Shown piece by piece: positions 15,338 to 42,515 of a stretch of 44,984 bases of DNA; positions within the stretch are counted from its first letter, which is position 1, and each line of letters begins with the position of its first letter. The notes under the pieces were generated by a model. It saw only the letters and a program-made list of their open reading frames with translations, searched no databases and was not told the origin of the DNA. A program made the translations under genes and the position numbers. The stretch is from an uncultured Candidatus Bathyarchaeia archaeon (GTDB taxonomy: Archaea > Thermoproteota > Bathyarchaeia > Bathyarchaeales > B26-1), in contig CAZCOP010000001.1 in NCBI GenBank assembly GCA_964499825.1, forward strand, positions 1-44,984. The letters are read 5' to 3'.

Positions 15338-15375
15338 TCTGAGTGGATAATGATCAGTAGAAGAAGAGAGGGGTT

Positions 15376-16470: not shown

Positions 16471-16497
16471 ATAATTCCTCGTTAGGGGGCTGGTTGG

Positions 16498-16695
16498 TTG
16501 AGTGAGGATACGCCGACGGGTCTGATACTGGCCGAAAAGTTGATGGGTATAATCATCTTGATAATAGGTGTTCTCCTCTCCTATTACACGTACGAGAACA
16601 TCGAGGCCGCTGGAGTATCAGCCGGCGTATTCATAATAGCCGGGATAGCCCTGATAATCCTTGGAATAATTATGTTGATAGCAAAGACGAGTTAG
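16498..16695 (+). CDS. Small two-helix membrane protein
   Basis: 65 aa with two hydrophobic spans (GIIILIIGVLLSYY, VFIIAGIALIILGIIMLI). The start is uncertain (TTG). Confidence 0.4.
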   Translation: MSEDTPTGLILAEKLMGIIILIIGVLLSYYTYENIEAAGVSAGVFIIAGIALIILGIIMLIAKTS

Positions 16696-16782
16696 TTTAT
16701 TACGTCCACCAGCCTCCATGCACTCACCCTCCTTTTTGTAGGAAATCTTTATCTCAGACCTAACCATAAAGACCTTGGAGCT

Positions 16783-17601: not shown

Positions 17602-18332
17602 CCGGTTTTTCTCCTCAACACCTCCAGAATCTCCTTTACAGCCCCCTCCAAACCCAAGAAGACAGCCCTCGAGATTATGCTGTGCCCTATACTAACCTCA
17701 AGGAGGTTGGGGAGCTCAGCGACTGGACCAAGGTTGCGGACGTTCAAACCGTGCCCCGCGTTGACCCCAAGGCCCAGCTCCCCCGCCACATGGGCGGCGT
17801 GGTTGAGCCTCTCCAGCTCCCTCTCCCTCTCCTCAGGGGTTGATGCCTCCGAGTACGCCCTCGTGTTCAGCTCCACCCTGTCGGCTCCAGCCTCCTTAGC
17901 GGCCCTAATCTGTTCATCATCCGGCTCGACAAAGATGCTGACCCTGATCCCGGCTTCACGCAGCCTCTTCACAGCCTCCTTAACGGCCTCCATATTCTTA
18001 ATTACGTCCAGCCCTCCCTCCGTCGTCCTCTCCCCCGGCCTCTCGGGTACTAGGGTGCACTGGTCAGGCTTCACCTCTAGGGCGAAGTTCACCATCTCCT
18101 CAGTAATGGCCATCTCGAGGTTCAACTCGGTCTTCACGATACTCCTGAGGAGGTGGACATCCCTCTCCTTTATGTGCCGCCTATCACCCCTAAGGTGGAC
18201 GGTTATCCCATCTGCCCCGGCGAGTTCACAGATGACTGCCGCCGCAACCGGGTCGGGTTCGACCCCTCCCCTAGCCTCACGGAGGGTGGCAACATGATCA
18301 ACGTTAACGCTGAGCCTAACCACCACGATCAC
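17595..18332 (-). CDS. pdxJ: Pyridoxine 5'-phosphate synthase
   Basis: 245 aa. [24 protein letters not shown]...[22 protein letters not shown] is nearly collinear with the bacterial PdxJ N-terminus as I recall it. There is a 7-nt convergent overlap with the radical SAM gene. Confidence 0.88.
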
Positions 18333-18542
18333 CAGCGGATAATAAGCCGAACACTTGTATTTAACGGTACCTCACGGTTTGACATCGCCTCCCGATGGTT
18401 TAAGGTTTCATCCTTTTTGGATACCTAGTTTACCTTCCCCCGCATGAATTAAGTCCATAGGTCTATACAAACCTACCATCGGCTCCACGGCTTTAACCCT
18501 TAATTTTAGAAGCTGATGCTTAGGCTTTGCAGTTTCCACCCC

Positions 18543-27818: not shown

Positions 27819-27819
27819 G

Positions 27820-28350
27820 CTACATCAACTCCTCAGCCTTCTCGCCATAAAGGTTCTCAGCCACATCACGGGTTAATTCTTCAGGGGTCTTGGCGAAGAG
27901 GTTGTGGGAGATTGAAGGTCCCTCCTTAACGAGTCTTAGGGCGTCATAACCAGCCTCGGTACACACTTTCACGCATTCCGGGTCACCCCCGCATAGGTCA
28001 CAGATTAGAACGTAGTTATCCCTTGGGTGGATGTGGGGTATATTCCCGGGGCAGGCCTCTATGCAGACGCCACAGCCCGTGCACTTATCCCTATCAACCA
28101 GGACGGCTGATGTCTCCTCATCAACTGACAGGGCATCGAGGGGGCAAGCCTCTACACAGGGATAGTCGGTGCACTGAACGCAGAGGTGCGGTATCTCAAC
28201 CCCGGGTATTAACATGAAAACCCTGACCCTCGAGGCTTCAGGCCAGATGGCGCCTTCATGGTGTAGGGTGCAGGCTATCTCGCACCTCCTACATCCGGTG
28301 CATCTAAGGTAGTCCCTGCTTATCCATAACCTACCTTTAGCTTTAGCCAT
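27820..28350 (-). CDS. Four-cluster [4Fe-4S] electron-transfer protein (AOR-associated polyferredoxin)
   Basis: 176 aa with four Cys motifs: CTGCRRCEIAC, CVQCTDYPCVEACP, CTGCGVCIEACP and CDLCGGDPECVKVC. Its stop lies 1 nt from the AOR start. Confidence 0.85.
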   Translation of the reverse strand: MAKAKGRLWISRDYLRCTGCRRCEIACTLHHEGAIWPEASRVRVFMLIPGVEIPHLCVQCTDYPCVEACPLDALSVDEETSAVLVDRDKCTGCGVCIEACPGNIPHIHPRDNYVLICDLCGGDPECVKVCTEAGYDALRLVKEGPSISHNLFAKTPEELTRDVAENLYGEKAEELM

Positions 28351-28654
28351 AACCTCTCACCGAGGTGATCATTATTCGTTCCTCATCTATTATAAAGTCT
28401 TTGATCGTTAAGCCTAGAAATTTACGTCCAGTTAACGTATACGTCTCTTCTTCTATCATTGCTCCCCCCGGGTTTCTCAGTAAGGCCTCGGCGCCCATTA
28501 AGGTTAGGCCATAGAATTCACCAGCCTTCATCCCAGCCTCAGCTTCTATGGAGCCTGTAATCATCCGCGTCACCTTTGGGTTTGATGAAAGCCTTGCCCT
28601 GTCAGTGTTGGACACGGCGTCAGAACTCCTTCCTTCCCAAGCCAGTCCGCACAA
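28343..28654 (-). CDS. Hypothetical small protein upstream of the Fe-S/AOR genes
   Basis: The ORF overlaps the ferredoxin start by 8 nt. The likely true start is the internal MITGSIEAE.., giving about 73 aa. I recognise no motif. Confidence 0.35.
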   Translation of the reverse strand: MCGLAWEGRSSDAVSNTDRARLSSNPKVTRMITGSIEAEAGMKAGEFYGLTLMGAEALLRNPGGAMIEEETYTLTGRKFLGLTIKDFIIDEERIMITSVRGYG

Positions 28655-28727
28655 AATAGGTCCCTAAGCCTAACATCTAATACTTCTAGGAAGTAAAAGC
28701 ATGGCTTTCCCCGCAACTCTCAGACGG

Positions 28728-28738
28728 TTAATTTAAAT
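28728..28738 (+). promoter_or_regulatory. Candidate TATA box for the aldolase-AOR2 operon
   Basis: ttaatttaaat lies about 20-30 nt upstream of the first possible start (28759), within the 104-nt divergent intergenic region. Confidence 0.35.
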
Positions 28739-28758
28739 CCTCATAGATTGATTAATCT

Positions 28759-29418
28759 TTGGAGGTTTTGGTCTTGAGCGGGGAACTCTTTAGCGAGGAG
28801 GAGATCAAGCAGGAGATTTGCAGGGTTATGTCAGCCCTATACCGTAGAGGGTTGATATCAGCGACAGGGGGGAATGTGAGCGCTAGGATGCCGGGTTCAA
28901 GGGAGTTCTGGATAACCCCAAGCGGGATCTTCAAGGGTGAACTCTCACCGGACGATCTGGTCAAGGTGAACCTTAAGGGTGAAGTTGTTGAGGGATACAT
29001 GAAGCCATCGGTTGAAACCCCTATGCATAGGGCAATATACGAGAAGAGGCTCGACGTTAACGCCATAGTCCACGCCCATAACCCTGTTGCGACTGGGTTA
29101 GCCCTCGCCGGCGTGGAGATCCAACCCATCACCATAGAGGCCGTTGTAACCCTCAGAAGGGTCCCAATCGTCCCCTTCTTCTACCCTGGAACCGAGGACC
29201 TAGCCAAAGCCGTAGCTGAACATATACTCGGCGTTAGGGCCCTTATACTCCAGAACCACGGGGTTGTCGGCGTCGGCTTCAACCTCGTTGAGGCTGAGAC
29301 CATAGTTGAGACATTGGAGGAGGTAGCCATGACCCAGTGGGTTGCCCAACACTTCGGGAAGCCCCCGCTGATACCTGAGAAGGATAGGGAGCTCATAATG
29401 AAGCTATACGGCGTATAA
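28759..29418 (+). CDS. Class II aldolase/adducin-domain protein (FucA / L-ribulose-5-P 4-epimerase-like)
   Basis: 219 aa. ATGGNVSAR, ITPSG, PSVETPMHRAIY, VHAHNP and LQNHGVV (metal-binding His residues) are present. Confidence 0.82.
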   Translation: MEVLVLSGELFSEEEIKQEICRVMSALYRRGLISATGGNVSARMPGSREFWITPSGIFKGELSPDDLVKVNLKGEVVEGYMKPSVETPMHRAIYEKRLDVNAIVHAHNPVATGLALAGVEIQPITIEAVVTLRRVPIVPFFYPGTEDLAKAVAEHILGVRALILQNHGVVGVGFNLVEAETIVETLEEVAMTQWVAQHFGKPPLIPEKDRELIMKLYGV

Positions 29419-29434
29419 CTGGAGCTGGAGGGGT

Positions 29435-31279
29435 ATGCCGGACGAGTGGCACGGATACACGGGTAAGATACTGCGGATAGACCTCTCGAGGGGGACGGTG
29501 AAGACCCAGGAGTTGAGGAAGGAGGACGCCGTAAGGTTTATAGGCGGGGTTGGGCTAGCCGCAAAGATAATCCACGACGAAGTAGGCCCAGAGGTATCAC
29601 CATACAACCCAGATAACCTCCTAGTATTCATGACCGGGCCGCTTGAGGGAACCATGGTTCCATGCTCAGCTAGGTATGCGGTCTGCGCTAGGTCCCCCCT
29701 AACCGGAGCTTGGGGTGAAGCCCACGCGTCGGGTTTCTGGGGTCCTGAGTTGAAGGCGGCCGGTTACGATGGGATAATCATCGTCGGGAGGGCTGAGAAA
29801 CCCGTCTACATCAAGGTCTTCGATAACGACGTTGAGGTGGTTGACGCTGACCACCTGTGGGGTTTGGGTTGTATAGAGACCGAGAACGCGCTCAAGAAGG
29901 AGCTTGATGGGAGGGTTAAGGTTGCATCTATAGGGCCCGCCGGTGAGAAGCTCGTCCGCTTCGCATCGATACTGAACGATGAGGGGAGGGCTGCTGGGCG
30001 TTGCGGTATGGGCGCAGTTATGGGCTCCAAGAGGCTTAAGGCGGTCGCGGTCTTGGGTTCAAGCCACGTTAGAGTCGCCGACCCAAACAGATTGAGGAGC
30101 TTCATAAGGAGGCTCTACCCAGTCCTGATGTCCTTCCCAACGACCCAGATACACTCAGCCTACGGAACCAACGGGGAGATGGCGTCCTTCTACGAGTATG
30201 GGGATGTCCCGATAAAGCACTTCACTATGGGCTCATGGGATGGAATCCGAAAGATAGACGGCCACGCGATGGCTGAGGCCATAGTTAAGGGGCAACGTGC
30301 ATGCCTCGGCTGCCCGATAGGCTGTTGGAGGATCGTGAAGGTTGAGGCCGGACCTTACGCAGGCGTTGAGGGTAGGGGTCCCGAGTATGAGACGGTCGCA
30401 TCCTTTGGCGCCCTACTCCTAAACGACGATATAGAGGCCATAGCCAAGGCCAACCAGATATGCAACCACTACGGGATGGACACGATCTCGACGGGTGTGA
30501 GCATAGCCTTCGCGATGGAGTGCTACGAGAGGGGGATAATAGACGAGAAAACAACGGGAGGATTGGATCTGAGGTGGGGCGATGCTGATTCCATATTGAG
30601 GCTTACCGAGATGATAGGGAGGAGGGAGGGCTTCGGCGATATACTTGCGGAGGGCGTTAGGAGGGCCGCCGAGAGGATAGGGCGTGGAGCCGAGAAGTAC
30701 GCGATGCACGTCAAGGGCTTGGAGATACCGATGCACGATCCAAGGGCCTTCCATGGGATGGGCCTCCAATACGCAACATCGAATAGGGGAGCCTGCCACA
30801 TGAACGGTTTCGTGATCAGGATTGAGCAGGGGGAGAGGATGACAGACCTGAAGATATACGAGAGGGTTGACAGGTTCGAGACTAGGGGTAAGGGTAGGAT
30901 AGTTGCCCTGATGCAGAACTGGCATGAGGTCCTAGACTCAACGATAACGTGCAAGTTCCTAGCGGTCTCACCTGGACACCTAGCCGGCTTCTACACGATG
31001 GTTACCGGCTTCACGATGAGGGTTCCGGAGATGATAGAGGCTGGGGAGAGGATATTCAACATAAAGAGGCTCTTCAACGTAAGGTGTGGAATAACCCGCA
31101 AGGATGACACACTTCCGGATAGATTCAGGAAGGAGCCTCTACCAAATGGAGGGGCGAAGGGTAGAACCGTTAAGTTGGATGAGATGTTGGAGGAGTACTA
31201 CCGGTTTAGGGGTTGGGATGAGGATGGTAAGCCCAGCGAGGAGACCCTCAGGAGGCTGGGTTTAACCACAAACCCATAA
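29435..31279 (+). CDS. aor: Tungsten-containing aldehyde:ferredoxin oxidoreductase family protein (paralogue 2)
   Basis: 614 aa. The canonical cluster motif CLGCPIGC, PEYET, SNRGACH and DS.TC are present. It starts 16 nt downstream of the aldolase gene. Confidence 0.9.
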   Translation: MPDEWHGYTGKILRIDLSRGTVKTQELRKEDAVRFIGGVGLAAKIIHDEVGPEVSPYNPDNLLVFMTGPLEGTMVPCSARYAVCARSPLTGAWGEAHASGFWGPELKAAGYDGIIIVGRAEKPVYIKVFDNDVEVVDADHLWGLGCIETENALKKELDGRVKVASIGPAGEKLVRFASILNDEGRAAGRCGMGAVMGSKRLKAVAVLGSSHVRVADPNRLRSFIRRLYPVLMSFPTTQIHSAYGTNGEMASFYEYGDVPIKHFTMGSWDGIRKIDGHAMAEAIVKGQRACLGCPIGCWRIVKVEAGPYAGVEGRGPEYETVASFGALLLNDDIEAIAKANQICNHYGMDTISTGVSIAFAMECYERGIIDEKTTGGLDLRWGDADSILRLTEMIGRREGFGDILAEGVRRAAERIGRGAEKYAMHVKGLEIPMHDPRAFHGMGLQYATSNRGACHMNGFVIRIEQGERMTDLKIYERVDRFETRGKGRIVALMQNWHEVLDSTITCKFLAVSPGHLAGFYTMVTGFTMRVPEMIEAGERIFNIKRLFNVRCGITRKDDTLPDRFRKEPLPNGGAKGRTVKLDEMLEEYYRFRGWDEDGKPSEETLRRLGLTTNP

Positions 31280-31284: not shown

Positions 31285-31292
31285 CTTTAAAT
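31285..31292 (+). promoter_or_regulatory. Candidate TATA box for the complex I-like operon
   Basis: ctttaaat (context caaactttaaatctc) is the only strong A/T box between the AOR2 stop (31279) and the nuoA-like coding text. Confidence 0.4.
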
Positions 31293-31461
31293 CTCACATC
31301 TGATTATGTTATAGAACCCGATAACCAGCGGATGGAGGCGTACATGGACGTTAATCGAGTCGGCGACAGCCTTCGCGGTCATCCTAGCATCATCGATACT
31401 AATCTATCTACTCGCTAGGCTGCTGGCTCCCAAACCTCCGAGGAATCGAGATAAGGTCTCC

Positions 31462-31674
31462 ATGTACGCTTGTGGGGAGAGGGTTCGTTCTGGAAGATTT
31501 GTAATAGACATAACATTATACAAGTACCTCGTATACTTCATAATCCTCGACTCCTCGGTTCTACTACTAGCCTTCGCAGCCCTAACACCAACTCCGATAA
31601 GCCTACCTCTCCTACTGGTCTACATCTCAACCCTACTGGCAGCCACTATACTACTAGCAACGGGTGGTGACTAA
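31462..31674 (+). CDS. nuoA: NuoA-like membrane subunit (minimal ORF; conserved N-terminal helix lies upstream without a start codon)
   Basis: SMYACGER.. is followed by two hydrophobic helices, matching the NuoA YECGE region. The same frame is open back to 31315 and encodes ..ESATAFAVILASSILIYLLARLLAPKPP.. (the expected TM1) with no ATG/GTG/TTG. Confidence 0.7.
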   Translation: MYACGERVRSGRFVIDITLYKYLVYFIILDSSVLLLAFAALTPTPISLPLLLVYISTLLAATILLATGGD

Positions 31675-32113
31675 AACGCAAAGATGGAGCCCGATAAGAT
31701 GGGCGAGGTTGAAATCCCCCTGGATACTGCACTTCAATAGCGGAGCGTGTAACGCATGCGACATAGAGGTTTTAGCCCTCCTAACACCTAGATACGACCT
31801 TGAAAGGTTCGGGGTTCTCCACAAGGCAACCCCAAGACACGCCGATATACTCGTCGCAACTGGACCCGTAACCAGGCAGGCCGCTCCGAGGCTTAAGAGG
31901 ATCTACAAGCAGATGCCGGAGCCGAAGTTTGTGATAGCTGTCGGCACATGTGCATGTTCAGGGGGAGTCTTCAAGAAGTGCTACAACGTCCTTAAGGGCG
32001 TTGATAAGGTTATCCCCGTCGATGTTTATGTCCCCGGGTGTCCGCCGAAGCCTGAGGCCATACTATACGGGATCATGAAGTTGCTGGGGAAGATCGAGAA
32101 GGTGGGAGGCTGA
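31664..32113 (+). CDS. nuoB: NuoB-like / group 4 [NiFe]-hydrogenase small subunit
   Basis: 149 aa. The cluster ligands are SGACNACDIE (CxxC, hydrogenase type), GTCACSGG and PGCPP. The GTG start overlaps nuoA. Confidence 0.88.
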   Translation: MVTKTQRWSPIRWARLKSPWILHFNSGACNACDIEVLALLTPRYDLERFGVLHKATPRHADILVATGPVTRQAAPRLKRIYKQMPEPKFVIAVGTCACSGGVFKKCYNVLKGVDKVIPVDVYVPGCPPKPEAILYGIMKLLGKIEKVGG

Positions 32114-32116
32114 GAG

Positions 32117-33790
32117 ATGGACTTCGAGGATGAGGTTATCGGCTTAATCAGGGATAAGCTTGGAGGCAAGGTGTTGGAGGCTGAGGTTCCAACTGAGAGG
32201 AGAGTATACATATCACTCAAACCGGGCCTTCATAGGGATGCCATCTCGACGCTCCTCGAGGCCTACCCGACGACGATAATCTCGACGATAACCGGTGTCG
32301 ATTTGGGCGACTACATCGAGCTGAACTACCACCTCTGGTGCGGCAGAGCGGAGGTAACCATCAGAACAAAGGTGCCGAAGCTAAAACCGGAGATAGATAC
32401 CATAACAGACATCATACCCGGTGCAGCCCTATACGAGAGGGAGGTCTTCGACCTACTTGGAGTCAGATTCATAAACCACCCAGACCTAAGGAGGCTGCTA
32501 CTACCGGAGGACTGGCCTGAGGGTGAGTACCCGCTTAGGAAGGAATGGAAGCCCAAATCCCTAGAAGAATCAACAGCCACGGGCAGGCGGCTTCTTAAGG
32601 GTGAGAACCTAAGGAGTTCAACCGGGGAGGGAACCGTCATAAACGTGGTTGTTGGACCCCAACACCCAGCCCTCCACGAACCCGAGAGGTTCCTCTTTAA
32701 GGTTGACGGGGAGGTTGTAGTCGATGTTGAACCTAGGCTCGGCTATGCCCATAGGGGTATAGAGAAGGCAGCTGAACAGTTGATGTTCTTCCAGGATGTC
32801 CACTTGGTTGAGAGAATATGCGGCATATGCAACGTGGCTCACACAACATGCTTCTGTGAAGGCGTCGAGGCTCTCGGCGGGATAGATGTCCCGCCTAGAG
32901 GCAGATACCTCAGGACGATAGTCCACGAGTTGAATAGGATACACAGCCACCTCCTCCTCCTCGGCGTTACCGGCTTGGAGATGGGCTTTGAGTCCCTATT
33001 CCAGTATATATGGCGTGACCGAGAGATAGTTCTAGACTTAACCGAGAAGTTAACCGGAAACAGGGTTATGGCGGAGTATAACACGATAGGCGGAGTCAGG
33101 AGGGATCTAAACCCGAAATTGGCCGAGGAGATGAGGGAGAAACTTGGAGTTCTCAGGGATAGGATGCTCTTCTACCGCGGAGTCTTCGAGGACGACCCAA
33201 CCTTCGAGGCTAGGACTAAGGATGTTGGGGTTCTAAGGGATGAGGATGCCCTAAAGCTCTGCGTGGTTGGACCGGTCGCCAGAGGGTCAGGGATCGAGAT
33301 AGATGTCAGGAAGCATGACCCATACGCCGCCTACGACGAGATACCCTTCAGAGAAGTGATCTACAAGGAGGGCGACTCATGGGCCCGCCTCATGGTTCGA
33401 CTAGACGAGGTAATCGAGAGCATAGATGTAATCTCCTACGCCGTTGAGAACCTCCCACCCGGACCGTACAGGGTTAGGGTTCCGAGGAGGATGCCTAAGG
33501 GTGAGGTTCTGAGTAGGGTTGAGGCGCCACGCGGCGAACTGGTTCATTACATTAGAAGCAACGGCTCCGCCTACCCCGAACGGGTGAAGATAAGGTCCCC
33601 AACCTTAGCGAATATAATATGCTTCAGGGAGATAATTCGGGGCTGTTACGTTGCGGATATACCGGTCGTCCTCGCCAGTTTAGACCCATGCTTCTCATGT
33701 ACGGATAGGATGACCTTCGTAGATGTGAATGATGGGCGGAGGTGGACTTGGAGCATGAATGAGGTAAGGAGGAGGCCTAGAGGGCGGTGA
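32117..33790 (+). CDS. nuoCD: Fused NuoC-NuoD homologue with intact [NiFe] ligand motifs (HycE-like hydrogenase large subunit)
   Basis: 557 aa. The N-terminal 30-kDa-like domain (..YEREVFDLLGV.F..HPDLRRLLLPEDW) is followed by GPQHPA, ERICGICNVAH and the C-terminal DPCFSCTDR. A 26-aa tail, MTFVDVNDGRRWTWSMNEVRRRPRGR, follows. Confidence 0.88.
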   Translation: MDFEDEVIGLIRDKLGGKVLEAEVPTERRVYISLKPGLHRDAISTLLEAYPTTIISTITGVDLGDYIELNYHLWCGRAEVTIRTKVPKLKPEIDTITDIIPGAALYEREVFDLLGVRFINHPDLRRLLLPEDWPEGEYPLRKEWKPKSLEESTATGRRLLKGENLRSSTGEGTVINVVVGPQHPALHEPERFLFKVDGEVVVDVEPRLGYAHRGIEKAAEQLMFFQDVHLVERICGICNVAHTTCFCEGVEALGGIDVPPRGRYLRTIVHELNRIHSHLLLLGVTGLEMGFESLFQYIWRDREIVLDLTEKLTGNRVMAEYNTIGGVRRDLNPKLAEEMREKLGVLRDRMLFYRGVFEDDPTFEARTKDVGVLRDEDALKLCVVGPVARGSGIEIDVRKHDPYAAYDEIPFREVIYKEGDSWARLMVRLDEVIESIDVISYAVENLPPGPYRVRVPRRMPKGEVLSRVEAPRGELVHYIRSNGSAYPERVKIRSPTLANIICFREIIRGCYVADIPVVLASLDPCFSCTDRMTFVDVNDGRRWTWSMNEVRRRPRGR

Positions 33791-34785
33791 TCCCTGACCT
33801 AAACTTCATCTTCAGGGTTCTAGTCTTCCCGGGTTTTCTATTCCTCCTATCCTTCTCCCTCTTCTGCGACTGGTTCGAAAGGAAGGTTATGGCTAGGATG
33901 CAGAATAGGATGGGGCCGTCTTACACCGGACCCTTCGGGATACTCCAGCCCCTAGCGGATTACATCAAGCTATTGACGAAGGAGGATATAACCCCCGATC
34001 ACGTTGAGGGTCTACTCTTCACCCTAACCCCGTTATTCTCATTCTCCCTCTTCACGTTCTCGATCTTCTACTTTCCATTGGATGGAGTTAACGTCTTCTC
34101 GAACCCCGGTTTCGAGGGAGACCTCCTCCTCGTACTTGCCATAGTGACCTTCGCCCACTTCACCCTCTTCCTCTCAGGGTGGTCCTCATCTAACCCCTAC
34201 AGCGGGATAGGGGCTGTCAGAATACTGACCCAGTTCATAGGATATGATATACCGCTCCTCATACTCTCATTAGGTCCAGCATTCCTCGTTGGGAGCCTCT
34301 CGCTAAACAGGATAGCCTCACACCAGCCTGTGCCCTTCGCCATCCTGATACCGTGGGTCTTCCTCCCCTTCCTCATAACCCTACAAGCAGAGCTGGAGGA
34401 GGATCCCTTCGATATACCACACGCCGAGACCGAGATAGTAGCCGGCTACGGGACAGAGTTCTCCGGGAGGAAGCTCGCCTTCATAAACCTCTCGAAGGAT
34501 GTCCAGATAATCTTCGGAGCGATCCTGACGGTTGAGCTTTTCCTAGGTGGACCTTACGGACCGACGCCCTCTGAGCCGCATAGGCTCTGGTTCACGTTAT
34601 GGCTTATCCTTAAGGTTCTCTTCGTCATATTCATACTCGAATTCGTTGAGGCGATCTGTGCAAGGTTCAGGATAGACCAGATTGTGAGGGCGAACTGGAG
34701 GCTGATGATACCGTTATCCATCCTGTCTATAGCCTTGACGATCCTGTATGCGCCCTTGGTGAGACCGTTGATCGGAGGTGTGTAA
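33787..34785 (+). CDS. nuoH: NuoH-like membrane subunit
   Basis: 332 aa and polytopic. GPFGILQPLADYIKLLTKED matches the NuoH/HycD signature. The start has a GTGA overlap. Confidence 0.88.
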   Translation: MIPDLNFIFRVLVFPGFLFLLSFSLFCDWFERKVMARMQNRMGPSYTGPFGILQPLADYIKLLTKEDITPDHVEGLLFTLTPLFSFSLFTFSIFYFPLDGVNVFSNPGFEGDLLLVLAIVTFAHFTLFLSGWSSSNPYSGIGAVRILTQFIGYDIPLLILSLGPAFLVGSLSLNRIASHQPVPFAILIPWVFLPFLITLQAELEEDPFDIPHAETEIVAGYGTEFSGRKLAFINLSKDVQIIFGAILTVELFLGGPYGPTPSEPHRLWFTLWLILKVLFVIFILEFVEAICARFRIDQIVRANWRLMIPLSILSIALTILYAPLVRPLIGGV

Positions 34786-35179
34786 GGGCATGGTTAGGGT
34801 GAAGGCCCCGAGGATGGTGAGGGAGGTCCTGACAGCCCTCTTCAAGAGGCCGTTTACAAGACAGTACCCATTCGTCAAGCCTGAGCCTCCAGAAGGGCTC
34901 AGGGGTAGACAGGTATTCCATCCGGAGAGGTGTATAGGGTGCGGCCTCTGCGCTAGGGACTGCCCAGCTGGAGCCATAGAGATGGTTGAGGTCTCGGGTA
35001 AGAGGATGCCCCTCATCCACCTTGACAGCTGCATCTTCTGTTACGTATGCGTGGAGAACTGTCCCAGAAACGCGATAGTTGAGTCAACCCTCTATGAGCT
35101 TGCCTCGACAAGCAAGGATGAGCTTGTTATAAGGCCCTACGAGAGCCAATCCGCCTCATCAGGGGGTGTTGACGGATGA
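34778..35179 (+). CDS. nuoI: NuoI-like 2x[4Fe-4S] subunit
   Basis: CIGCGLCARDCP and CIFCYVCVENCP are present. The start may be the ATG at 34790. Confidence 0.88.
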   Translation: MCKGMVRVKAPRMVREVLTALFKRPFTRQYPFVKPEPPEGLRGRQVFHPERCIGCGLCARDCPAGAIEMVEVSGKRMPLIHLDSCIFCYVCVENCPRNAIVESTLYELASTSKDELVIRPYESQSASSGGVDG

Positions 35180-35661
35180 TTATCCCATATGAGGATTTGA
35201 TCGCCGTCTTGCTCGTCGCCTCAGCCTTCCTAGCTGTACACATGGATGATACAACCCATTCAGTCATCTCCTTCGGTTTCATGTTCGCGGTGCTCTCCAC
35301 CCTATACTTCGCCCTAGGTGCCTACTTTGCAGCCGTCTTCCAAATAGTTGTAGCTGTTGGAACCATAGCGGTCTTCTTCCTCGCAGGCGAGATGCTCACA
35401 TCGAAGAGGAGAGCCAGGAAGGGAGGAGCCCGCAAGACCCTGGAGTTTGCGGCCGCCGTGCTCCTCTCCATACCGGCGCTCATCTCCAAGTTTGAGTTCA
35501 ACACGTTGATGAAGCCTCAGGGTTTATCCTTCCAGAGGGCCCTATGGGAGTTCAGGGCTCTAGATGTTGTGGCCCAAGGGGTCGTCGTCCTAACTCTAGC
35601 CCTCGGGGTCGTCATAGTTCTCAGGGAGAGGCGGCGTGTAGAGAAGAGGAGGGTTGGTTAG
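35176..35661 (+). CDS. nuoJ: NuoJ-like membrane subunit
   Basis: 161-aa hydrophobic protein at the NuoJ position, with ATGA overlap coupling. Confidence 0.7.
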   Translation: MIIPYEDLIAVLLVASAFLAVHMDDTTHSVISFGFMFAVLSTLYFALGAYFAAVFQIVVAVGTIAVFFLAGEMLTSKRRARKGGARKTLEFAAAVLLSIPALISKFEFNTLMKPQGLSFQRALWEFRALDVVAQGVVVLTLALGVVIVLRERRRVEKRRVG

Positions 35662-35992
35662 GTTGGAGTATATCGTTCTCTCTGCAACCCTGCTGGCGAT
35701 AGGTGTATACGGCCTCCTAACGAAGAGGAACCTACTCAAGATGTTGATCTCCATCGAGATGATAGCGGCGGCTGCGAGTATGAACTTCGTGGTCTTCGCA
35801 TCATCAGCTGGTGGAAGCCTCGGGCAGGTCTTCCTCACCCTAGCGTTGTCGGTTGACACAGCCATAACCGCGATAGTCATAGCTCTGGTTCTGGTCTCGT
35901 ATAGGGAGTTTAGGGTTCTGGATGTATGGGACCTCTCAAGACTTGGCAGGAGGAGGGAACGTAAACACAAACTTGGGGAGGTTGAGGAGTGA
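35654..35992 (+). CDS. nuoK: NuoK-like membrane subunit
   Basis: About 100-112 aa with three helices and a membrane Glu in ..LISIEMI.. It is at the NuoK position. Confidence 0.75.
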   Translation: MVRLEYIVLSATLLAIGVYGLLTKRNLLKMLISIEMIAAAASMNFVVFASSAGGSLGQVFLTLALSVDTAITAIVIALVLVSYREFRVLDVWDLSRLGRRRERKHKLGEVEE

Positions 35993-37938
35993 TGTTCCCG
36001 CAGCCTCCGCTTTCCCTTGACGGCCTCTCCCCGTGGCTTGTATGGCTCCTCCCATTAGCCTCGAGCATACTCGTCCCCTTCGTGGATAGGGTTGGCTCAA
36101 GGGTTAGGGATGGATTCGTAATCGTCGTTGGGGTTATAACGTTGATCCTGGCGGCCTCCCTAATCCCCGAGGCACATTCAGCGGTCGGCGGTCCGGAGGG
36201 GGTTGAGTGGATACCGGTTGTGGATGTGAAACTTGGGGTCTTGGTTGACCCGTTAAGCATCCTCTTCGCAAACCTGATAGCCCTCATAGGCTTGGTCGTC
36301 CTCATCTACTCGTTGAGTTACATGGCCCATGAGGAGGGTTTAGCCCGCTACTACTTCTTCATGCTCCTCTTCATAGGGTCTATGATCGGGTTGGTGATGG
36401 CCGACAACTTCCTCCAACTCTTCATCTTCTGGGAGATGGTTGGTTTATGCTCCTACGCCCTCGTCTCCTTCTGGTATAAACGCCCAGAGGCCGTGAAGGC
36501 CGGGGTTAAGGTCTTCATAATGACGAAGGTAGGTGACATCGCGCTTCTAGCCGGTATACTCATCCTATACGCAAACCTGAACACCCTATCCTACTCGGAG
36601 ATATTCCAGAGGTACGGGGAGGTTGCCACGCCAATCCTGACCGTGGTTGGGATGCTGATGCTTATCGGAGCCTTCGTCAAGTCGGCTCAGCTACCGTTAC
36701 ATACATGGCTCTACAGCGCGATGGAGGCTCCAACATCGGTGAGCTGCCTCCTCCACGGCGCAACCATGGTTAAGGCTGGGGTCTACCTGATCGCTAGGAC
36801 CCACCCGATCTTCTCCTCGATACCCCTCTGGTTGAACTCCACCGTCTGGCTTGGAGCCCTAACGGCCTTCATAGGTGCAACCCTAGCCCTGCACACTCCG
36901 GATATAAAGGGGGTTCCAGCCTACTCCACGGTAAGCCAGATAGGTTTCATGATGGCCGCCTTAGGTGTCTCACCGCATCCCATAGGCTGGTTTGCGGGTT
37001 TATTCCACATGATAAGCCACGCCTTCTTCCAGGGTTTGGGCTTCTTAGCGATCGGGAGTATAATACACCAGCTTGGAACTAGGGATATGAGGAAGATGGG
37101 CGGTTTGAGGAGGGATATGCCCTTCACATTCGCCCTCTGCATAGTCGTTATACTCGCCCGCTCCGGGATACCGCCCTTCTGCAGCTTCTTCAGTAAGGGT
37201 TTGATAGCGGGCATCCTCCTATCCTCCGGCGACATCTGCCTAATACTCCTGATATACTCAGCCACGGCGGTAACGTTCGCATACAGCTACAGATTTCTGG
37301 TCCTAACCTTCGCTGGTGAGAAGTCCCCATACCTGAAGAGGATTAAGGTTCACGAGGCTCCACTTTTGATGTGCCTCTCCTCAAGCGTGCTGGCCGTTGG
37401 AAGCGCCGTCTTCGGGTTCTTCGGTAACCCGCTGGCTAGATTCCTAGGTGTGAACTACGCCTTCAGGTTGGAGAGCTTCTTCAGTTTAGAGTCGCTCATG
37501 TTCATGACCACCCTACTCATAGGCGGGTTGCCCATCTACCTGATCTACCAGAGGAGGATTATACCGCCATCCCGGGTGAGGAGTGGGATCCTATCCATCC
37601 TTGATAGGCTCCTGGAGAACGGCTACTACTTCGACTCCCTCTATGGAGGGGTTGCCAGCTCCGTCATGGGCCTTTCCAGCCAGCTCCGCAGAGAATTAGA
37701 GATTAAGGTCTTCGAGCGTGTGCCCTACTTGGTTGCCAGCTCCGTCATGGGCCTCGCAAGGTTCAGCCTATGGAACTTCGAGGTGGCCCTTACGAGGCTT
37801 CTCCACCTAACCGCCATCGCAACAGCCCGCCACAGCGTCAAGATAAGGAGGGTTCACAGCGGGGCCCTCCCACACTTCGTCTTGGCGGCAACCATGGGCT
37901 TCCTCTTTTTATGCATCCTACTATTACTAACAGTCTGA
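35989..37938 (+). CDS. nuoL: NuoL-like antiporter-type subunit
   Basis: 649 aa. FIFWEMVGLCSYALVSFW and a long C-terminal region after YFDSLY are consistent with a lateral helix plus a final TM. Confidence 0.88.
   Translation: MMFPQPPLSLDGLSPWLVWLLPLASSILVPFVDRVGSRVRDGFVIVVGVITLILAASLIPEAHSAVGGPEGVEWIPVVDVKLGVLVDPLSILFANLIALIGLVVLIYSLSYMAHEEGLARYYFFMLLFIGSMIGLVMADNFLQLFIFWEMVGLCSYALVSFWYKRPEAVKAGVKVFIMTKVGDIALLAGILILYANLNTLSYSEIFQRYGEVATPILTVVGMLMLIGAFVKSAQLPLHTWLYSAMEAPTSVSCLLHGATMVKAGVYLIARTHPIFSSIPLWLNSTVWLGALTAFIGATLALHTPDIKGVPAYSTVSQIGFMMAALGVSPHPIGWFAGLFHMISHAFFQGLGFLAIGSIIHQLGTRDMRKMGGLRRDMPFTFALCIVVILARSGIPPFCSFFSKGLIAGILLSSGDICLILLIYSATAVTFAYSYRFLVLTFAGEKSPYLKRIKVHEAPLLMCLSSSVLAVGSAVFGFFGNPLARFLGVNYAFRLESFFSLESLMFMTTLLIGGLPIYLIYQRRIIPPSRVRSGILSILDRLLENGYYFDSLYGGVASSVMGLSSQLRRELEIKVFERVPYLVASSVMGLARFSLWNFEVALTRLLHLTAIATARHSVKIRRVHSGALPHFVLAATMGFLFLCILLLLTV
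37650..37754 (+). repeat. In-frame direct repeat inside nuoL (24-nt perfect core, 81-nt period)
   Basis: ggttgccagctccgtcatgggcct occurs at 37650-37673 and again at 37731-37754. It encodes (G/L)VASSVMGL twice. Confidence 0.85.
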
Positions 37939-37949
37939 GGTGATGTGAC

Positions 37950-39422
37950 GTGTTCACGCCGCTCTTGTTCGCCCTCCTCCTACCCGCCTTCTCGGCGTTG
38001 CTCGTCTATCTGGTTGGTGGCAGATCCGTTAGGGCAGCCGCAGCGGTAGTCCTCTTAACATCGATCCTCGATCTTACAGCCATATTGACGGTTGTTCCGA
38101 GGGTTCTCTCCGAGGGTGAATACTTAGAGTCCTATTATTGGATGCCCATGTTGGGTTCTCCGTTGACCCTATTCGTTGACGGTGTGAGCCTCTCGATGGC
38201 CATCGTAACATTACTGCTCATAATCTCGGCTGTCCTCTTCTCGGTCGGCTACATGGAGGAGAGGGAGGGCTTGAGGGAGTACTACGCCCTCATGGCTCTA
38301 TTAACCGTCGGCCTGGTCGGGGTCTTCATAACATCCAACCTCATGGTCTTCTACTTCTGTTGGGAGTTCATGCTTATCCCAACCTACTTCATAATTGGGG
38401 GTTGGGGTTATAGGGAGTCCTATAGGGCTGCGTTCAAGTTCTTCATATTCACCCATGCAGGAGCGGTCGCTGTGCTACTCGGGGTTGGAGCCGTCTACAT
38501 GCTCACCGGAACACTAGACATGATCGAGGCTAGAACCCTACTGATGGCTTCCCCACAGGAGATACTGAGGTGGATATTCATAGCCTTCACCCTAGGCTTC
38601 GCCGTGAAGATGGCGGTGGTACCGGTCCACATGTGGCTACCAGACGCACACGCCGAGGCTCCAGCCCCAATGTCGGCCCTCCTAAGCGGGGTCATAATCG
38701 AGGCTGGCGCATATGCGATATTGAGGATCTCCCTTGGTATGGTCCTACCGTCGATAAGTGATGCAACCCTGACAAGCCGCTTCCTCTACGGCCTATCGAT
38801 CTTCGGTGTTATCTCAGCCTTTTATGGAGCTATGACCGCCCTAGCCGAGAATGATATAAAGAGGATAGTTGCCTACTCGAGTATAAGCCATATGGGGTAT
38901 GCCCTCTTTGGCCTATCCCTGTTCCCGCTGGCTGAGGGCGTTGTGGGGGTTGTCCTACACCTCGTCAACCACGCCGTAAGTAAGGGCCTACTCTTCCTAA
39001 ACGCTGGGGCCATAATGAAGCAGACCGGTTTGAGGGATATAAGGGAGATGGGCGGCTTAGCCTCCAAGATGCCCCTAACAGCGGTCTCAACGGCCATCTC
39101 ATCCTTCAGTATAGCCGGTATACCAGCCTTCGCCTGCTTCATAAGTGAGTTCCTAATCTTCATGGGAGGCTTCCAGGCTGGGGTGTCCGACAGCTTCTAC
39201 TACACAACCACAGCCCTGATGGTGGTGGCGACGGTATTCAGCCTCGCCTACGTCCTACGACTATTCTGGAGGGTCTTCCTAGAGAAACCCAAGGTTGAGG
39301 AGGTTGAGAGGGGATCGATCTACATGGCTTTACCGATGGCCATACTCTCAATTGTCGTCGTGGTATTGGGTGTATGGCCAGGCCCCGTGATCGAGTTGAT
39401 AAGTACAGCTCAACCGGGTTGA
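37950..39422 (+). CDS. nuoM: NuoM-like antiporter-type subunit
   Basis: 490 aa. FYFCWEFMLIPTYFIIGGWG and VPVHMWLPDAHAEAP are present. Confidence 0.88.
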   Translation: MFTPLLFALLLPAFSALLVYLVGGRSVRAAAAVVLLTSILDLTAILTVVPRVLSEGEYLESYYWMPMLGSPLTLFVDGVSLSMAIVTLLLIISAVLFSVGYMEEREGLREYYALMALLTVGLVGVFITSNLMVFYFCWEFMLIPTYFIIGGWGYRESYRAAFKFFIFTHAGAVAVLLGVGAVYMLTGTLDMIEARTLLMASPQEILRWIFIAFTLGFAVKMAVVPVHMWLPDAHAEAPAPMSALLSGVIIEAGAYAILRISLGMVLPSISDATLTSRFLYGLSIFGVISAFYGAMTALAENDIKRIVAYSSISHMGYALFGLSLFPLAEGVVGVVLHLVNHAVSKGLLFLNAGAIMKQTGLRDIREMGGLASKMPLTAVSTAISSFSIAGIPAFACFISEFLIFMGGFQAGVSDSFYYTTTALMVVATVFSLAYVLRLFWRVFLEKPKVEEVERGSIYMALPMAILSIVVVVLGVWPGPVIELISTAQPG

Positions 39423-39423
39423 G

Positions 39424-40932
39424 GTGGAGGCTTTGATAGGATTACTGGAGGCTTTAACCCCAACCGTCATCCTCATCCTATCAGCCCTAATCACCGTTCC
39501 GGTGGTTGCGTTGATAAGGAGGGGGGATAACCGCCACAGAAGCCTCATAATCTTGTGGGTTATCATACCCTTCATCCTAGTCGGGATCAGCCTCATAAAC
39601 CTAAGCCGTGAGTATTATGGGATGGCTGGGGAGACCCCCTTCATCAACGTCTCCCTCATCGGTGGAGCTGGAGCCGCCCTATCAAGCTCCTTCCTCATAG
39701 ACGCCGTCTCGCTGTATATGGCCTCAGTCTACCTAATCATGGCTTTGCCCTCATGCATCTATAGTATATTGTACGTGGGCATGGATGATGAACTCTCCGG
39801 TAGATACTTCGCCTTGATGTTCATGGTCTTGGGGAGCGTCATAGCGGCGACCTTCTCCGGCGACCTCCTCACACTCTTCATCTTCTGGGAGGCCTCCGCC
39901 GCCGGCTCATGCTTCCTCATAGTATACGGGAGGAGGGCGGAATCTATAGAGGCCTCCTTGAAGTACTTGGTCATGATAATCATAGCGTCGGGCTTCATAG
40001 TCTTCGGCCTATCCATAATCTACGGCATAGTCGGCTCACTCAACTTCTGGGCTGTGAGGGAGGTCCTCCTATCCATAACCGACAAGAGACTTCTAGTCGC
40101 GGCCTTCGCCTTCGTCGCGTGTGGCTACGCCATCGAGACAGCTGTAGTCCCCTTCCACATGTGGCTTCCAGACGCCTACACAGCTGCGCCCCCATCATCT
40201 GCGGCCTTCCTCTCAGCCATAGTGGACCAAGCTAGCTACTACGTCTTCATGAGGGTTCTGGTATACATATTGACCCCTCCCCTCATCCTGAACTGGCCCC
40301 CCGCCTTGGGGGTCTTCTCAGCCCTCACGATGACTGTTGGGAACCTCTTCGCCCTAGCCCAGAGCGATGTGAAACGTATGATATCCTATGTCTGTGTTGC
40401 GGATATAGGCTATAACCTTGTAGCCATAACGAGCGTGAAGCCGATTGGGGTTATGGGAAACCTGTTCTTCTTCTTCGTTGGCGGTATGACTACCGCTCTG
40501 GCTTTCATGGCTATAGGTGTTCTAAACGATATGGGTTTGAGGAGCTTGGAGGACCTATCCGGGATCGGTAGGAAGCTTCCGCTAACCAGCCTAGCCTTGA
40601 TAGTTGCGGTGTTATCCTTCTCGGGTATACCGACCTTCGCCGGCTTCATGGCTAAGTACCTAGTCTTTACGGCGGCTATAGAGGCCGGTATGGGATGGCT
40701 GGCGGTTGCGGGGGTTTTAAACACCGTTCTCCAGACGGCTTACCTGATAAGGCTCATTCATTACATGTTCGCTAGGAGGGCGAGGCGTAGGGTTGAGGGT
40801 GAGGAGCCCAGAAGTTTGATGGTGCCCATCTACATGCTGGTGGCTGCGATAATCATATTGGGGGTCTATCCGGCTATTGCCTTGGCGATGATAAACCCGG
40901 CTGCTGAGCAGTTGAGCCTCCTCATCCCCTGA
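39424..40932 (+). CDS. nuoN: NuoN-like antiporter-type subunit
   Basis: 502 aa. FIFWEASAAGSCFLIVY and VPFHMWLPDAYTAAP are present. Confidence 0.88.
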   Translation: MEALIGLLEALTPTVILILSALITVPVVALIRRGDNRHRSLIILWVIIPFILVGISLINLSREYYGMAGETPFINVSLIGGAGAALSSSFLIDAVSLYMASVYLIMALPSCIYSILYVGMDDELSGRYFALMFMVLGSVIAATFSGDLLTLFIFWEASAAGSCFLIVYGRRAESIEASLKYLVMIIIASGFIVFGLSIIYGIVGSLNFWAVREVLLSITDKRLLVAAFAFVACGYAIETAVVPFHMWLPDAYTAAPPSSAAFLSAIVDQASYYVFMRVLVYILTPPLILNWPPALGVFSALTMTVGNLFALAQSDVKRMISYVCVADIGYNLVAITSVKPIGVMGNLFFFFVGGMTTALAFMAIGVLNDMGLRSLEDLSGIGRKLPLTSLALIVAVLSFSGIPTFAGFMAKYLVFTAAIEAGMGWLAVAGVLNTVLQTAYLIRLIHYMFARRARRRVEGEEPRSLMVPIYMLVAAIIILGVYPAIALAMINPAAEQLSLLIP

Positions 40933-40994
40933 GAGTGTGGTGAGTAAAGGTAAATATTCCTCGACGTTCATCCTATGGTTGGAGATGTAAACCT

Positions 40995-42515
40995 ATGGCG
41001 GGGGATAGGAGCCTAATAGCCTTCGACGAGTTGAACTCAACCATCATAAGCCAAGGCTTCTGCACTCTATGTGGAGCATGTGAGGCAGCCTGCCCCGTCC
41101 ACGCCATAAGGATAGAGGGAGATAAGATACACTACGACGACTGCTCACATTTTCTGGACTTCTGCTCGATCTGCTATGATATATGCCCCCACACCGAGCC
41201 CCTCCTGATGGAGGCCATGAGGTTCGTGATGGACGCCCCGGTAAGGAGGAGCGCCCTGGGATATTATAGGAGGATAGTCCTAGCCCAAGCCGTTGACAGC
41301 AAGATTAGGGAGCTGAGCCACGGCGGCGGCGTTGTAACAACGATCCTATCCCAGAGCCTCGAGGATAAGATGATCGATAGCGCCGTAATCTCCGAGGTTG
41401 AACTCAAAGCCCCCTTGAGGCTTAGAACTCGGATAGGCCTCGTCCCTGACGATGTCCTCTTAGCTGTGGATAGTAAATTCTCTCCCTCCTCCGTGGCGAA
41501 GGCCTTCGGAAGCGCCGTTAGGGAATATGGGAGGAGTAAGATAGCCTTCGTCGGGGTTCCCCATCAAGTTCTGGCTATACGTAAACTTGAGGCTTGGGAG
41601 CACAAGATAACGAGAAGCCTTAAGGTTACGATAGGGCTCTTCTGCCTCTGGGTCTTCTCCCGGGATATCCTCCTCAACTACTTGGAGGAGAAGTTCGGGG
41701 TTCGACGCACAGACATCGTCGGGATAGACCTCACAGACAAGTATGAGGTCTACACCAAACGGGGGATTGTTGAGGTCCCGATAAAGGAGCTCATGGGCCA
41801 CATCCTGAACAAATGCAAGACGTGTATGGACTTCACATCTGAGCTCGCCGACATATCGGTCGGTGGAGCCTATCCACTGAAGGACTGGTCTGTGGTCATC
41901 GTAAGGACCGAGAGGGGTGAAGAGATATTCAATAACGCCCTGGAAAGGGGGGCCATAAGAATTATGGATATAGAGCGGCATAGGGATGTCTTCACGCACC
42001 TACTGTCCATGGCTATGCGTAAGAAGGAGATGGCCTTAAGGGAGGTCAGGAGGCTGCGCAGTATGGGCCTATCCATACCCCCGATCGATTACACCTTAAC
42101 ATTCCTTAGCCCAGAGGCGTCGGTGATGGCTGAAACTAGGGTTGGCGACGTCATGACGAAGAAGGTCATGTCCGTCAACCCCTCGATGACGGTAAACCAG
42201 TTGCTGGATAACATGACCAAGCACCACCATATGGGGTATCCGGTCTTGAATGAGAAGGGTGAGCTTGTTGGTATAATAACCTTTGAGGATGTCATGAGGG
42301 TTCCGAAGGATGAGAGGGATAGGGTTCTAGTTGGGGAGGTTGCGAAGAAGGAGATAATCATCGCCTACCCGGATGAGACGCTCCTAGAAGCCTTCGAGAG
42401 GATGAACGAACATGAGATAGGGCGCCTCTTGATAGTGGACCCGAAGGACCATAAGAGGCTTCTGGGAATATTGACCAGAACTGATATAATGCACGCTTTG
42501 GGGAGGAGGTTTTAG
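40995..42515 (+). CDS. FrhB/FpoF-family (F420 hydrogenase/dehydrogenase beta-like) Fe-S flavoprotein fused to a C-terminal CBS pair
   Basis: 506 aa. It starts with ferredoxin motifs (CTLCGACEAACP, CSICYDICP). The FrhB-type core follows (SHGGGVVTTILSQSLEDKMIDSAVI, IAFVGVPHQVLAIRKL, CKTCMDFTSELADISVGG). It ends with two CBS repeats (VGDVMTKKVMSV..GYPVLNEKGELVGIITFEDVM; VGEVAKKEIIIA..RLLIVDPKDHKRLLGILTRTDIM). Confidence 0.8.
   Translation: MAGDRSLIAFDELNSTIISQGFCTLCGACEAACPVHAIRIEGDKIHYDDCSHFLDFCSICYDICPHTEPLLMEAMRFVMDAPVRRSALGYYRRIVLAQAVDSKIRELSHGGGVVTTILSQSLEDKMIDSAVISEVELKAPLRLRTRIGLVPDDVLLAVDSKFSPSSVAKAFGSAVREYGRSKIAFVGVPHQVLAIRKLEAWEHKITRSLKVTIGLFCLWVFSRDILLNYLEEKFGVRRTDIVGIDLTDKYEVYTKRGIVEVPIKELMGHILNKCKTCMDFTSELADISVGGAYPLKDWSVVIVRTERGEEIFNNALERGAIRIMDIERHRDVFTHLLSMAMRKKEMALREVRRLRSMGLSIPPIDYTLTFLSPEASVMAETRVGDVMTKKVMSVNPSMTVNQLLDNMTKHHHMGYPVLNEKGELVGIITFEDVMRVPKDERDRVLVGEVAKKEIIIAYPDETLLEAFERMNEHEIGRLLIVDPKDHKRLLGILTRTDIMHALGRRF

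Follow-up and report, generated by a model that had tools for sequence, protein, structure and literature searches.

What kind of enzyme is encoded by an operon that has the gene order of respiratory complex I and the active-site cysteines of a [NiFe]-hydrogenase, and what is the FrhB-family protein encoded directly behind it? Both questions are raised by a DNA stretch of 44,984 nucleotides (contig CAZCOP010000001.1 of assembly GCA_964499825.1; hereafter the window) from an uncultured archaeon of the Bathyarchaeia. The original prediction, made from the letters alone, held that this combination did not fit the known layouts. That part of it did not survive a literature search, as the exact architecture is already defined as Hfo (PMC7886697; PMC10477458). 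We put at about 0.8 the probability that these genes form an operon of the Hfo type in a Bathyarchaeia archaeon, Hfo being the published Fpo-like energy-converting [NiFe]-hydrogenase of group 4g. The Hfo core adds one more member to a kind already published; the feature beyond the literature searched is its conserved companion, an FrhB/FpoF-like protein with a C-terminal pair of CBS domains (hereafter FrhB-CBS).

Pfam and NCBIfam profiles identify ten genes at 31315-40932 as homologs of NuoA, B, a fused CD, H, I, J, K, L, M and N, in this order (Table 1). The ten genes account for the 11 core subunits of complex I in nuo/fpo order, with C and D fused. According to the table of open reading frames (ORFs), neighboring genes overlap at A/B (31664/31674), CD/H (33787/33790), H/I (34778/34785), I/J (35176/35179), J/K (35654/35661) and K/L (35989/35992), the gaps elsewhere in the operon are 3, 11 and 1 nt, and 62 nt separate the end of hfoN from the FrhB-family gene. 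The coordinates, overlaps, gaps, gene order and tight packing that had been predicted were all reproduced, and the FrhB-family gene predicted 62 nt downstream is real and is a conserved neighbor in related loci. The claimed lack of nuoE/F/G also held, with no such homolog found among the Pfam-scanned window ORFs of at least 110 aa (overlapping shadow ORFs lay outside the scan). FpoO is absent from the window as well.

The sequence places the catalytic pair with the hydrogenases, with four Ni-Fe cysteines, a proton-relay glutamate, a putatively cleavable tail and a CxxC motif in the small subunit. Compared with solved structures, the large subunit matched E. coli HycE best (305.7 bits, 6.5e-90), followed by P. 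furiosus MbhL (270), the NuoD/Nqo4 chains of complex I (252-239) and MbsL (6u8y_L, 190). The first ligand motif, L1 (RICGICNVAH), falls column for column on RVCGICGFAH of HycE (7z0s_E) and RMCGICSFSH of MbhL (6cfw_L), and the second, L2 (DPCFSCTDR), does the same on DPCYSCTDR and DPCLSCTDR, respectively. The two cysteine pairs, whose alignment had been set in advance as a check, occupy the L1 and L2 Ni-Fe positions. Both motifs agree with the group 4 patterns, C[GS][ILV]C[AGNS]xxH for L1 and [DE][PL]Cx[AGST]Cx[DE][RL] near the C-terminus for L2. Among the 120 closest large-subunit homologs (59-100% identity), L1 is kept in 118 and L2 in all 120, and every one has a C-terminal tail of 22-33 residues. 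The window protein's tail, 26 aa as predicted, can be aligned with the first part of the C-terminal tail of HycE. The beta1-beta2 loop, QHP[AV]LHEPE, is near-invariant in the same 120 sequences (QHPALHEPE in the window) and holds the Glu typical of group 4 together with a His that matches Nqo4 His38.

The small subunit has MbhJ (6cfw_J, 1.6e-50) as its best solved relative. Its SGACNACDIE aligns with SGSCNGCDIE of MbhJ, unlike the PSST chains of complex I, which show an adjacent 'AC--C'; the hydrogenase-type CxxC had been recognized correctly. In L024 and L025 (loci are given by number), both from Brockarchaeota, a gene for a HycI endopeptidase stands divergently beside the operon, and HycI homologs of 58-62% identity carry the names of Bathyarchaeota metagenome-assembled genomes (MAGs). 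Together with the predicted cleavable tail, the neighboring HycI points to Ni-Fe maturation. The proposal of a group 4-type [NiFe] pair inside a gene set of complex I/Fpo order is supported by these comparisons.

Both tailed and tail-less large subunits occur in linkage with FrhB-CBS. Tails of 26-30 residues, as in HycE, are found in the window and in L022-L025, L036, L039, L072 and L089. The large subunits of L049, L059, L063, L065, L074, L084, L088, L093, L096 and L098 end exactly at ...DPCFSCTDR, so that processing would not be needed, as in MbhL.

Hfo was named by Loh, Hervé and Brune (2021), who described an "Fpo-like 11-subunit hydrogenase" of subgroup 4g-6, supported by phylogeny and HydDB class 4g, and proposed that it couples H2 and ferredoxin to membrane potential (PMC7886697). 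The cluster has also been recognized in the cultivated Bathyarchaeum tardum, where a protein annotated as NuoD was assigned to Hfo (PMC10477458), and a large subunit of Bathyarchaeota BA1 was previously placed in 4g by HydDB. The window shares with Hfo the eleven subunits A-B-C-D-H-I-J-K-L-M-N in order, the kept L1 and L2, the lack of NuoEFG/FpoO and the class of organism. It differs in that C and D are fused, and in its F-type gene: the FpoF(O) module is said to be absent in the papers describing Hfo, whereas the window and most sampled relatives have an FrhB/FpoF-CBS gene after hfoN. The presence of this gene departs from the published description and is no argument against homology of the core.

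Hundreds of large-subunit homologs come from Bathyarchaeia and Brockarchaeota metagenome bins, proteins named from MAGs of Candidatus Bathyarchaeum share 60-61% identity with the large subunit, and the window's gene order recurs in L002, L022, L023, L036, L049, L059, L063, L072, L084, L093 and L096. Window proteins are 96-99% identical to those of a contig from the Guaymas Basin MAG 'Candidatus Bathyarchaeota archaeon B17_G17'. An exact-sequence look-up of the large subunit returned no record. Only two close loci came from a single-protein scan of genome contigs; its remaining matches, in Methanoregula, Cloacimonadota and others, belong to other group 4 clusters, in which the genes are ordered differently and FrhB-CBS is missing.

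The predicted membrane arm is of the complex I type, with NuoA, H, J and K homologs, three antiporter-like subunits (L, M and N) and the lateral C-terminal extension of NuoL. NCBIfam NuoL models cover residues 16-588 of HfoL, whereas those of MrpA and HyfB end at about residue 485. Key residues were compared using E. coli NuoL/M/N numbering, with the alignment columns checked by motif context. The glutamate of transmembrane helix (TM) 5 is kept in HfoL, M and N, as are the Lys/Glu/Lys of TM12, and the TM7 lysine is kept in HfoL and HfoM; the conserved residues are E149, K231 and K403 in HfoL and E139, K220 and E400 in HfoM. HfoK Glu35 aligns with E. coli NuoK Glu36. In HfoN, Glu238 and Asp268 replace Lys217 (TM7) and Lys247 (TM8) of E. 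coli NuoN, and this is invariant in 36 of 36 family members. HfoM is without the TM8 lysine and has an invariant Lys345. In HfoL, Lys262 is invariant and Lys342 is replaced by Gln348. These departures from complex I hold throughout the family. Judged from these alignments, the arm is complex I-like by composition, yet not at every key residue.

Table 1. The hfo operon and the FrhB-CBS gene in the window, with the profile matches of their products
Gene	Product	Coordinates (strand)	Profile matches
hfoA	NuoA/FpoA homolog, small membrane subunit	31315..31674 (+)	Pfam Oxidored_q4 7.3e-07
hfoB	NuoB/MbhJ-type small subunit, predicted proximal [4Fe-4S] cluster, CxxC	31664..32113 (+)	Pfam Oxidored_q6 1.2e-35
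hfoCD	Fused NuoC + [NiFe] large subunit	32117..33790 (+)	Pfam Complex1_30kDa, Complex1_49kDa, NiFeSe_Hases
hfoH	NuoH homolog, membrane subunit joining both arms	33787..34785 (+)	Pfam NADHdh 1.4e-87; NCBIfam NuoH 252.8 bits
hfoI	NuoI-type 2x[4Fe-4S] subunit	34778..35179 (+)	Fer4 families; NCBIfam NuoI, HycF, HyfH families
hfoJ	NuoJ homolog	35176..35661 (+)	Pfam Oxidored_q3 2.3e-10
hfoK	NuoK/FpoK homolog	35654..35992 (+)	Pfam Oxidored_q2 3e-17
hfoL	NuoL-type antiporter-like subunit, NuoL-specific C-terminal extension	35989..37938 (+)	NCBIfam NuoL models
hfoM	NuoM-type antiporter-like subunit	37950..39422 (+)	TIGR01972 NDH_I_M 343.9 bits, over its cut-off
hfoN	NuoN-type antiporter-like subunit	39424..40932 (+)	TIGR01770 247 bits; best solved relative NuoN 8e9g_N
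FrhB-CBS gene	FrhB/FpoF-like flavo-iron-sulfur protein	40995..42515 (+)	Pfam Fer4, FrhB_FdhB_N, FrhB_FdhB_C, 2x CBS

Two groups of known systems help to place the complex. The F420H2 dehydrogenases Fpo (Methanosarcina) and Fqo (Archaeoglobus), together with the Fpo-like complexes known from Methanothrix and Methanomassiliicoccales, share with the window the eleven-subunit core and its gene order, the NuoL-type lateral extension, and an F-type subunit of the FrhB family whose N-terminal domain is 2x[4Fe-4S]. They differ from it in that the window's D homolog keeps the Ni-Fe site instead of a phenazine/quinone pocket, its B homolog has CxxC, and its F-like protein carries the CBS pair, is without the IGKGK turn described below and scores far under the FpoF cut-off. 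Mbh of P. furiosus (group 4d, 6CFW) and the E. coli FHL/Hyc and Hyf enzymes (group 4a, 7Z0S) share the catalytic chemistry of the large and small subunits, with HycE as the best solved relative of the CD product and MbhJ as that of B, and with the tail aligning to the start of the HycE tail. In contrast to these enzymes, the window is without an Mrp-type MbhA-G module and a formate dehydrogenase partner, and has NuoA, NuoJ and three antiporter-like subunits in nuo order.

The linkage of FrhB-CBS to hfo can be approached from either side. Starting from the hydrogenase, all six loci with sequence past hfoN (L022, L023, L106, L107, L108 and L109; large-subunit identity 61-76%) have a Fer4+FrhB+CBS gene directly after it. 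For the reverse direction, an alignment of 18 family members (A1) led to 80 metagenome loci, onto which the window proteins were mapped; 72 of these have at least 600 nt upstream of FrhB-CBS and were counted as informative, in a sample chosen via FrhB-CBS itself. Linkage to Hfo-type clusters was found in 61 of the 72, in four gene arrangements. FrhB-CBS stands immediately after hfoN on the same strand in 48 loci, immediately after hfoI in nine loci with short B-C-D-H-I clusters and divergent membrane genes, divergent from hfoA in three, and at the head of the operon, upstream of hfoA, in one. In the large-subunit homologs of this sample, both cysteine pairs are kept wherever the motif regions can be read. 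Linkage that outlasts several rearrangements is a classical mark of functional partnership, and the linkage of FrhB-CBS carries this signature. We found no paper tying an FrhB-CBS protein to a group 4 hydrogenase in the literature searched, which did not cover subscription journals.

Several smaller features of these loci were also observed. A small membrane protein of 165-169 aa is encoded between FrhB-CBS and hfoA in three of the four divergent or head loci (L088, 6666-7163; L097, 2235-2744; L098, 2853-3362) and may be an extra subunit in one subclade. L107 contains two group 4 clusters in tandem (1-9000 and 9285-20604), with FrhB-CBS after the second, Hfo-ordered one only. A gene for a universal stress protein (Usp) lies 3' of FrhB-CBS on the same strand in L023, L106, L108 and L109; at this place in the window, the opposite strand encodes a MacB/FtsX-type permease instead. 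Where FrhB-CBS is distant from hfo, in L073, L078, L083 and L085, it directly follows genes for an adenosine-specific kinase and a NUBPL/Mrp-type P-loop NTPase for Fe-S transfer. A eukaryotic relative of this NTPase assembles the clusters of complex I.

The FrhB-CBS protein is composed of an N-terminal 2x[4Fe-4S] domain, an FrhB core (Pfam FrhB_FdhB_N, 9.2e-09; FrhB_FdhB_C, 3.2e-35) and the C-terminal CBS pair. Eight N-terminal cysteines, CxxCxxCxxxCP + C...CxxCxxxCP, are invariant across the family in alignment A1 and would bind two [4Fe-4S] clusters. The nearest solved structures are all F420 enzymes: FrhB (9r51_B) matches the core at 1.2e-41, and the zeta subunit of Ethanoperedens CODH (8riu_B) aligns with residues 12-345 at 4.5e-40, including its anchoring ferredoxin domain, with FwdI (8rja_E) and Fsr as further matches. 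The non-F420 relatives HCAR and FdhB reach merely ~1e-7. According to Lemaire et al., the Ethanoperedens subunits are plug-in F420 reductases, and zeta is anchored to its host via the N-terminal ferredoxin domain (PMC11493965). By analogy, they are a direct precedent for the role proposed for FrhB-CBS. The CODH/ACDS zeta subunit (8RIU) and FwdI (8RJA) share with FrhB-CBS the N-terminal 2x[4Fe-4S] anchor followed by an FrhB-type FAD/[4Fe-4S] domain. They differ in their host, which for the window protein would be a membrane hydrogenase, and in the C-terminus, where the CBS pair replaces a dimerization extension. A further difference is that the first cluster ligand is His190 in the window subclade and the GxGK turn is not conserved.

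In an AlphaFold2 model of FrhB-CBS (mean predicted local distance difference test score, 67), the CBS pair is confidently folded (~90), and the ferredoxin domain falls below 50. The GxxTxxD motif is kept in both CBS repeats (G426/T429/D432 and G491/T494/D497). This motif is the ribose-binding signature of CBS modules that bind adenosyl ligands.

Taken together, the domain order, the nearest homologs and the gene linkage suggest that FrhB-CBS is probably an FpoF-like electron module of the Hfo complex. The two clusters of HfoI and then HfoB would carry electrons towards or away from the [NiFe] site, at which 2H+ and H2 would be interconverted, and HfoH/A/J/K together with the three antiporter-like subunits would couple the redox energy to ion translocation. 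Turnover would be reversible, with its direction set by physiology: H2 would be produced from reduced ferredoxin in a fermenter, and in the reverse direction ferredoxin would be reduced with H2 at the expense of membrane potential, as Loh et al. propose. FrhB-CBS would then correspond to FpoF/FqoF, or to the plug-in F420 reductases in the CODH and Fwd of Ethanoperedens. Its ferredoxin-like domain would attach it to the peripheral arm close to HfoI, a site indicated by the loci in which the peripheral-arm genes stand alone and FrhB-CBS follows hfoI. There it would add FAD and three clusters, joining a hydride carrier, with F420 as the leading candidate, to the cluster chain, with the CBS pair adjusting it to the status of adenine nucleotides. 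The full stoichiometry of 4 H+/2e- is unlikely in Hfo because H2 chemistry linked to ferredoxin or F420 involves little free energy in comparison with NADH:quinone. We speculate that the charge-inverted HfoN may be relevant to this. In its complete form, as a twelve-component [NiFe]-hydrogenase that is linked to F420 or another hydride carrier, gated by adenine nucleotides and ion-translocating, this model is tentative and has less than an even chance of being correct.

A number of observations weigh against the model or parts of it, and the first of these concern the cofactor. The original prediction had suggested possible coupling to F420 or another cofactor through the FrhB-like subunit. 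F420 is plausible by nearest homology and is the leading candidate among hydride carriers, but the FrhB loop near the cofactor is not conserved. In the cryo-electron microscopy structure of Frh, Mills et al. describe a turn, 163-IGKGK, that adjoins F420 and was assigned to its phosphate. It corresponds to 'DLT-DKY' in the window, one residue shorter, and its lysines are variable across alignment A1; the Fsr paper gives the F420 site only as a 'positively charged cleft'. The profile scores fall under their cut-offs, namely 182.3 versus 269 for the NCBIfam FrhB subfamily, 158.9 versus 331.5 bits for TIGR03289, and 116 versus 475 bits for FpoF, aligned over residues 17-344. The core-cluster ligands C104, C134, C192 and C195 of M. 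marburgensis FrhB (PMC3591093) correspond to H190, C217, C274 and C277 in the window. His190 (41562-41564, 'GVPHQ') is found in the window and its closest relatives, and more distant family members have Cys ('PCH'), which suggests a 3Cys/1His core cluster in the window's subclade and weighs against a simple F420 assignment.

The remaining points concern the complex as a whole. We infer the physical association of FrhB-CBS with the Hfo complex from synteny only, and 11 of the 72 informative loci have FrhB-CBS without a nearby hfo gene. The FrhB homolog of the termite-gut Bathy-6 has no annotated CBS domain and is not reported as adjoining hfo (PMC7886697). For H2 chemistry linked to ferredoxin or F420, with its small free energy, an arm with three antiporter-like subunits seems too large. 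Neither hyp nor hycI genes were found in the 45-kb window, and hfoA in the window is without a canonical start codon at its expected N-terminus. Finally, the literature contains no biochemical characterization of any 4g or Hfo enzyme. The original prediction had named a defined and characterized subgroup as an outcome that would undercut its claim; Hfo is such a subgroup in being defined, but not in being biochemically characterized.

In a different division of labor, Hfo would be an energy-converting hydrogenase that works with ferredoxin only, the current assumption for subgroup 4g, and FrhB-CBS would be a separate soluble enzyme that is simply co-expressed with it, for example a ferredoxin:F420 oxidoreductase. 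We regard this as possible but well short of probable. The soluble FpoF of Methanosarcina mazei is reportedly a ferredoxin:F420 oxidoreductase. This role has also been proposed for FqoF, and a soluble role of FqoF/FrhB has been discussed (PMC10667645). The 62-nt gap before the FrhB-CBS gene, which has its own Shine-Dalgarno-like GGAG, would fit a separate enzyme, as would the 11 loci in which the gene lies away from hfo and the Bathy-6 genomes reported with FpoF/FrhB homologs elsewhere in the genome. However, the linkage persists over four arrangements, including the one directly after hfoI with the membrane genes divergent, and an N-terminal ferredoxin-like domain is what anchors the homologous modules to their hosts in 8RIU and 8RJA.

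It is very improbable that the operon encodes a respiratory complex of the Fpo/Nuo kind, with quinone, methanophenazine or another membrane compound as its acceptor and the Ni-Fe cysteines as an evolutionary relic. Such a complex would account for the nuo subunit order and for the names given to the large subunit, which several automatic annotations call 'NADH-quinone oxidoreductase subunit D' and the source annotations call NuoC/D. The large subunit also scores 354.8 bits with the NCBIfam NuoD model PRK06075, just below the cut-off of 360, and keeps a His at the Nqo4 His38 column, in QHPALHEPE. In contrast, all four cysteines are retained in 118-120 of the 120 closest homologs, whereas Nqo4 has RMDYLHSFAH at the L1 position and is without cysteines there, and the column of its quinone ligand Tyr87 is a Gly within CGIC in the window protein. 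The putatively cleavable tail and the neighboring HycI gene, which point to Ni-Fe maturation, and the small-subunit CxxC in place of the adjacent cysteine pair of complex I also argue against this explanation, and Loh et al. did not find methanophenazine biosynthesis genes in Hfo-bearing genomes (PMC7886697). A sulfur- or polysulfide-reducing complex like Mbs/Mbx, in place of a hydrogenase, is still less credible: MbsL (6u8y_L) and MbsH (6u8y_H) are detectable homologs, but MbsL scores 190 bits, far under HycE (306) and MbhL (270), both cysteine pairs are intact where Mbx/Mbs have partly lost them, and NuoA and NuoJ are present instead of an Mrp-type Na+ module.

The start of the operon differs in one respect from what had been predicted. 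The open frame from 31315 is as given, but this position is merely the first codon after an in-frame TAG (which ends at 31314) and not a start codon. No ATG, GTG or TTG occurs in the hfoA frame upstream of 31462, which lies 47 codons downstream of an ATA at 31321-31323. The closest long relative, L022, has an ATG aligned to this ATA, making 31321 the probable start of hfoA; the ATA could be a rare start codon, a population variant or a base-call error. A TATA-like TTTAAAT is located at 31286-31292, immediately after the stop codon of the preceding AOR gene.

Two AOR genes lie upstream, at 25941-31279, one on the minus strand paired with a 4Fe-4S protein and the other on the plus strand (29435-31279) after a class II aldolase gene, stopping 35 nt ahead of the hfoA open frame. 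The original prediction took them as a hint of ferredoxin coupling. The genes are real, but that argument is weak because their neighborhood is conserved in no related locus: neither this AOR nor the class II aldolase has a counterpart near any of them, and we rejected the AOR neighborhood as a sign of coupling. Elsewhere the window encodes a histidine biosynthesis operon, topoisomerase VI, a RIO kinase, a P-type ATPase and similar housekeeping genes, an archaeal gene set; Rfam families and tRNAs were not found in it.

The Hfo gene set is the closest hydrogenase mirror of respiratory complex I and bears on the origin of complex I from membrane hydrogenases, a link that was itself already published in 2021. 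If FrhB-CBS is a real subunit, the resemblance to Fpo/Fqo would reach the electron-input module, an energy-status sensor in the form of the CBS pair would be built into a respiratory-type complex, and it would be explained how Bathyarchaeia, abundant in sediments, could join H2 to F420 or another carrier for acetogenesis. If the twelve-component model is true, the complex would in effect be an Fpo/Fqo complex with an F subunit that still performs H+/H2 chemistry, and would stand between membrane hydrogenases and F420H2 dehydrogenases as a living intermediate. It would also fill a gap left by Loh et al., who could not identify where the archaeal Wood-Ljungdahl pathway of Bathyarchaeia obtains its F420H2. 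The cultivated relative Bathyarchaeum tardum makes the role of FrhB-CBS testable.

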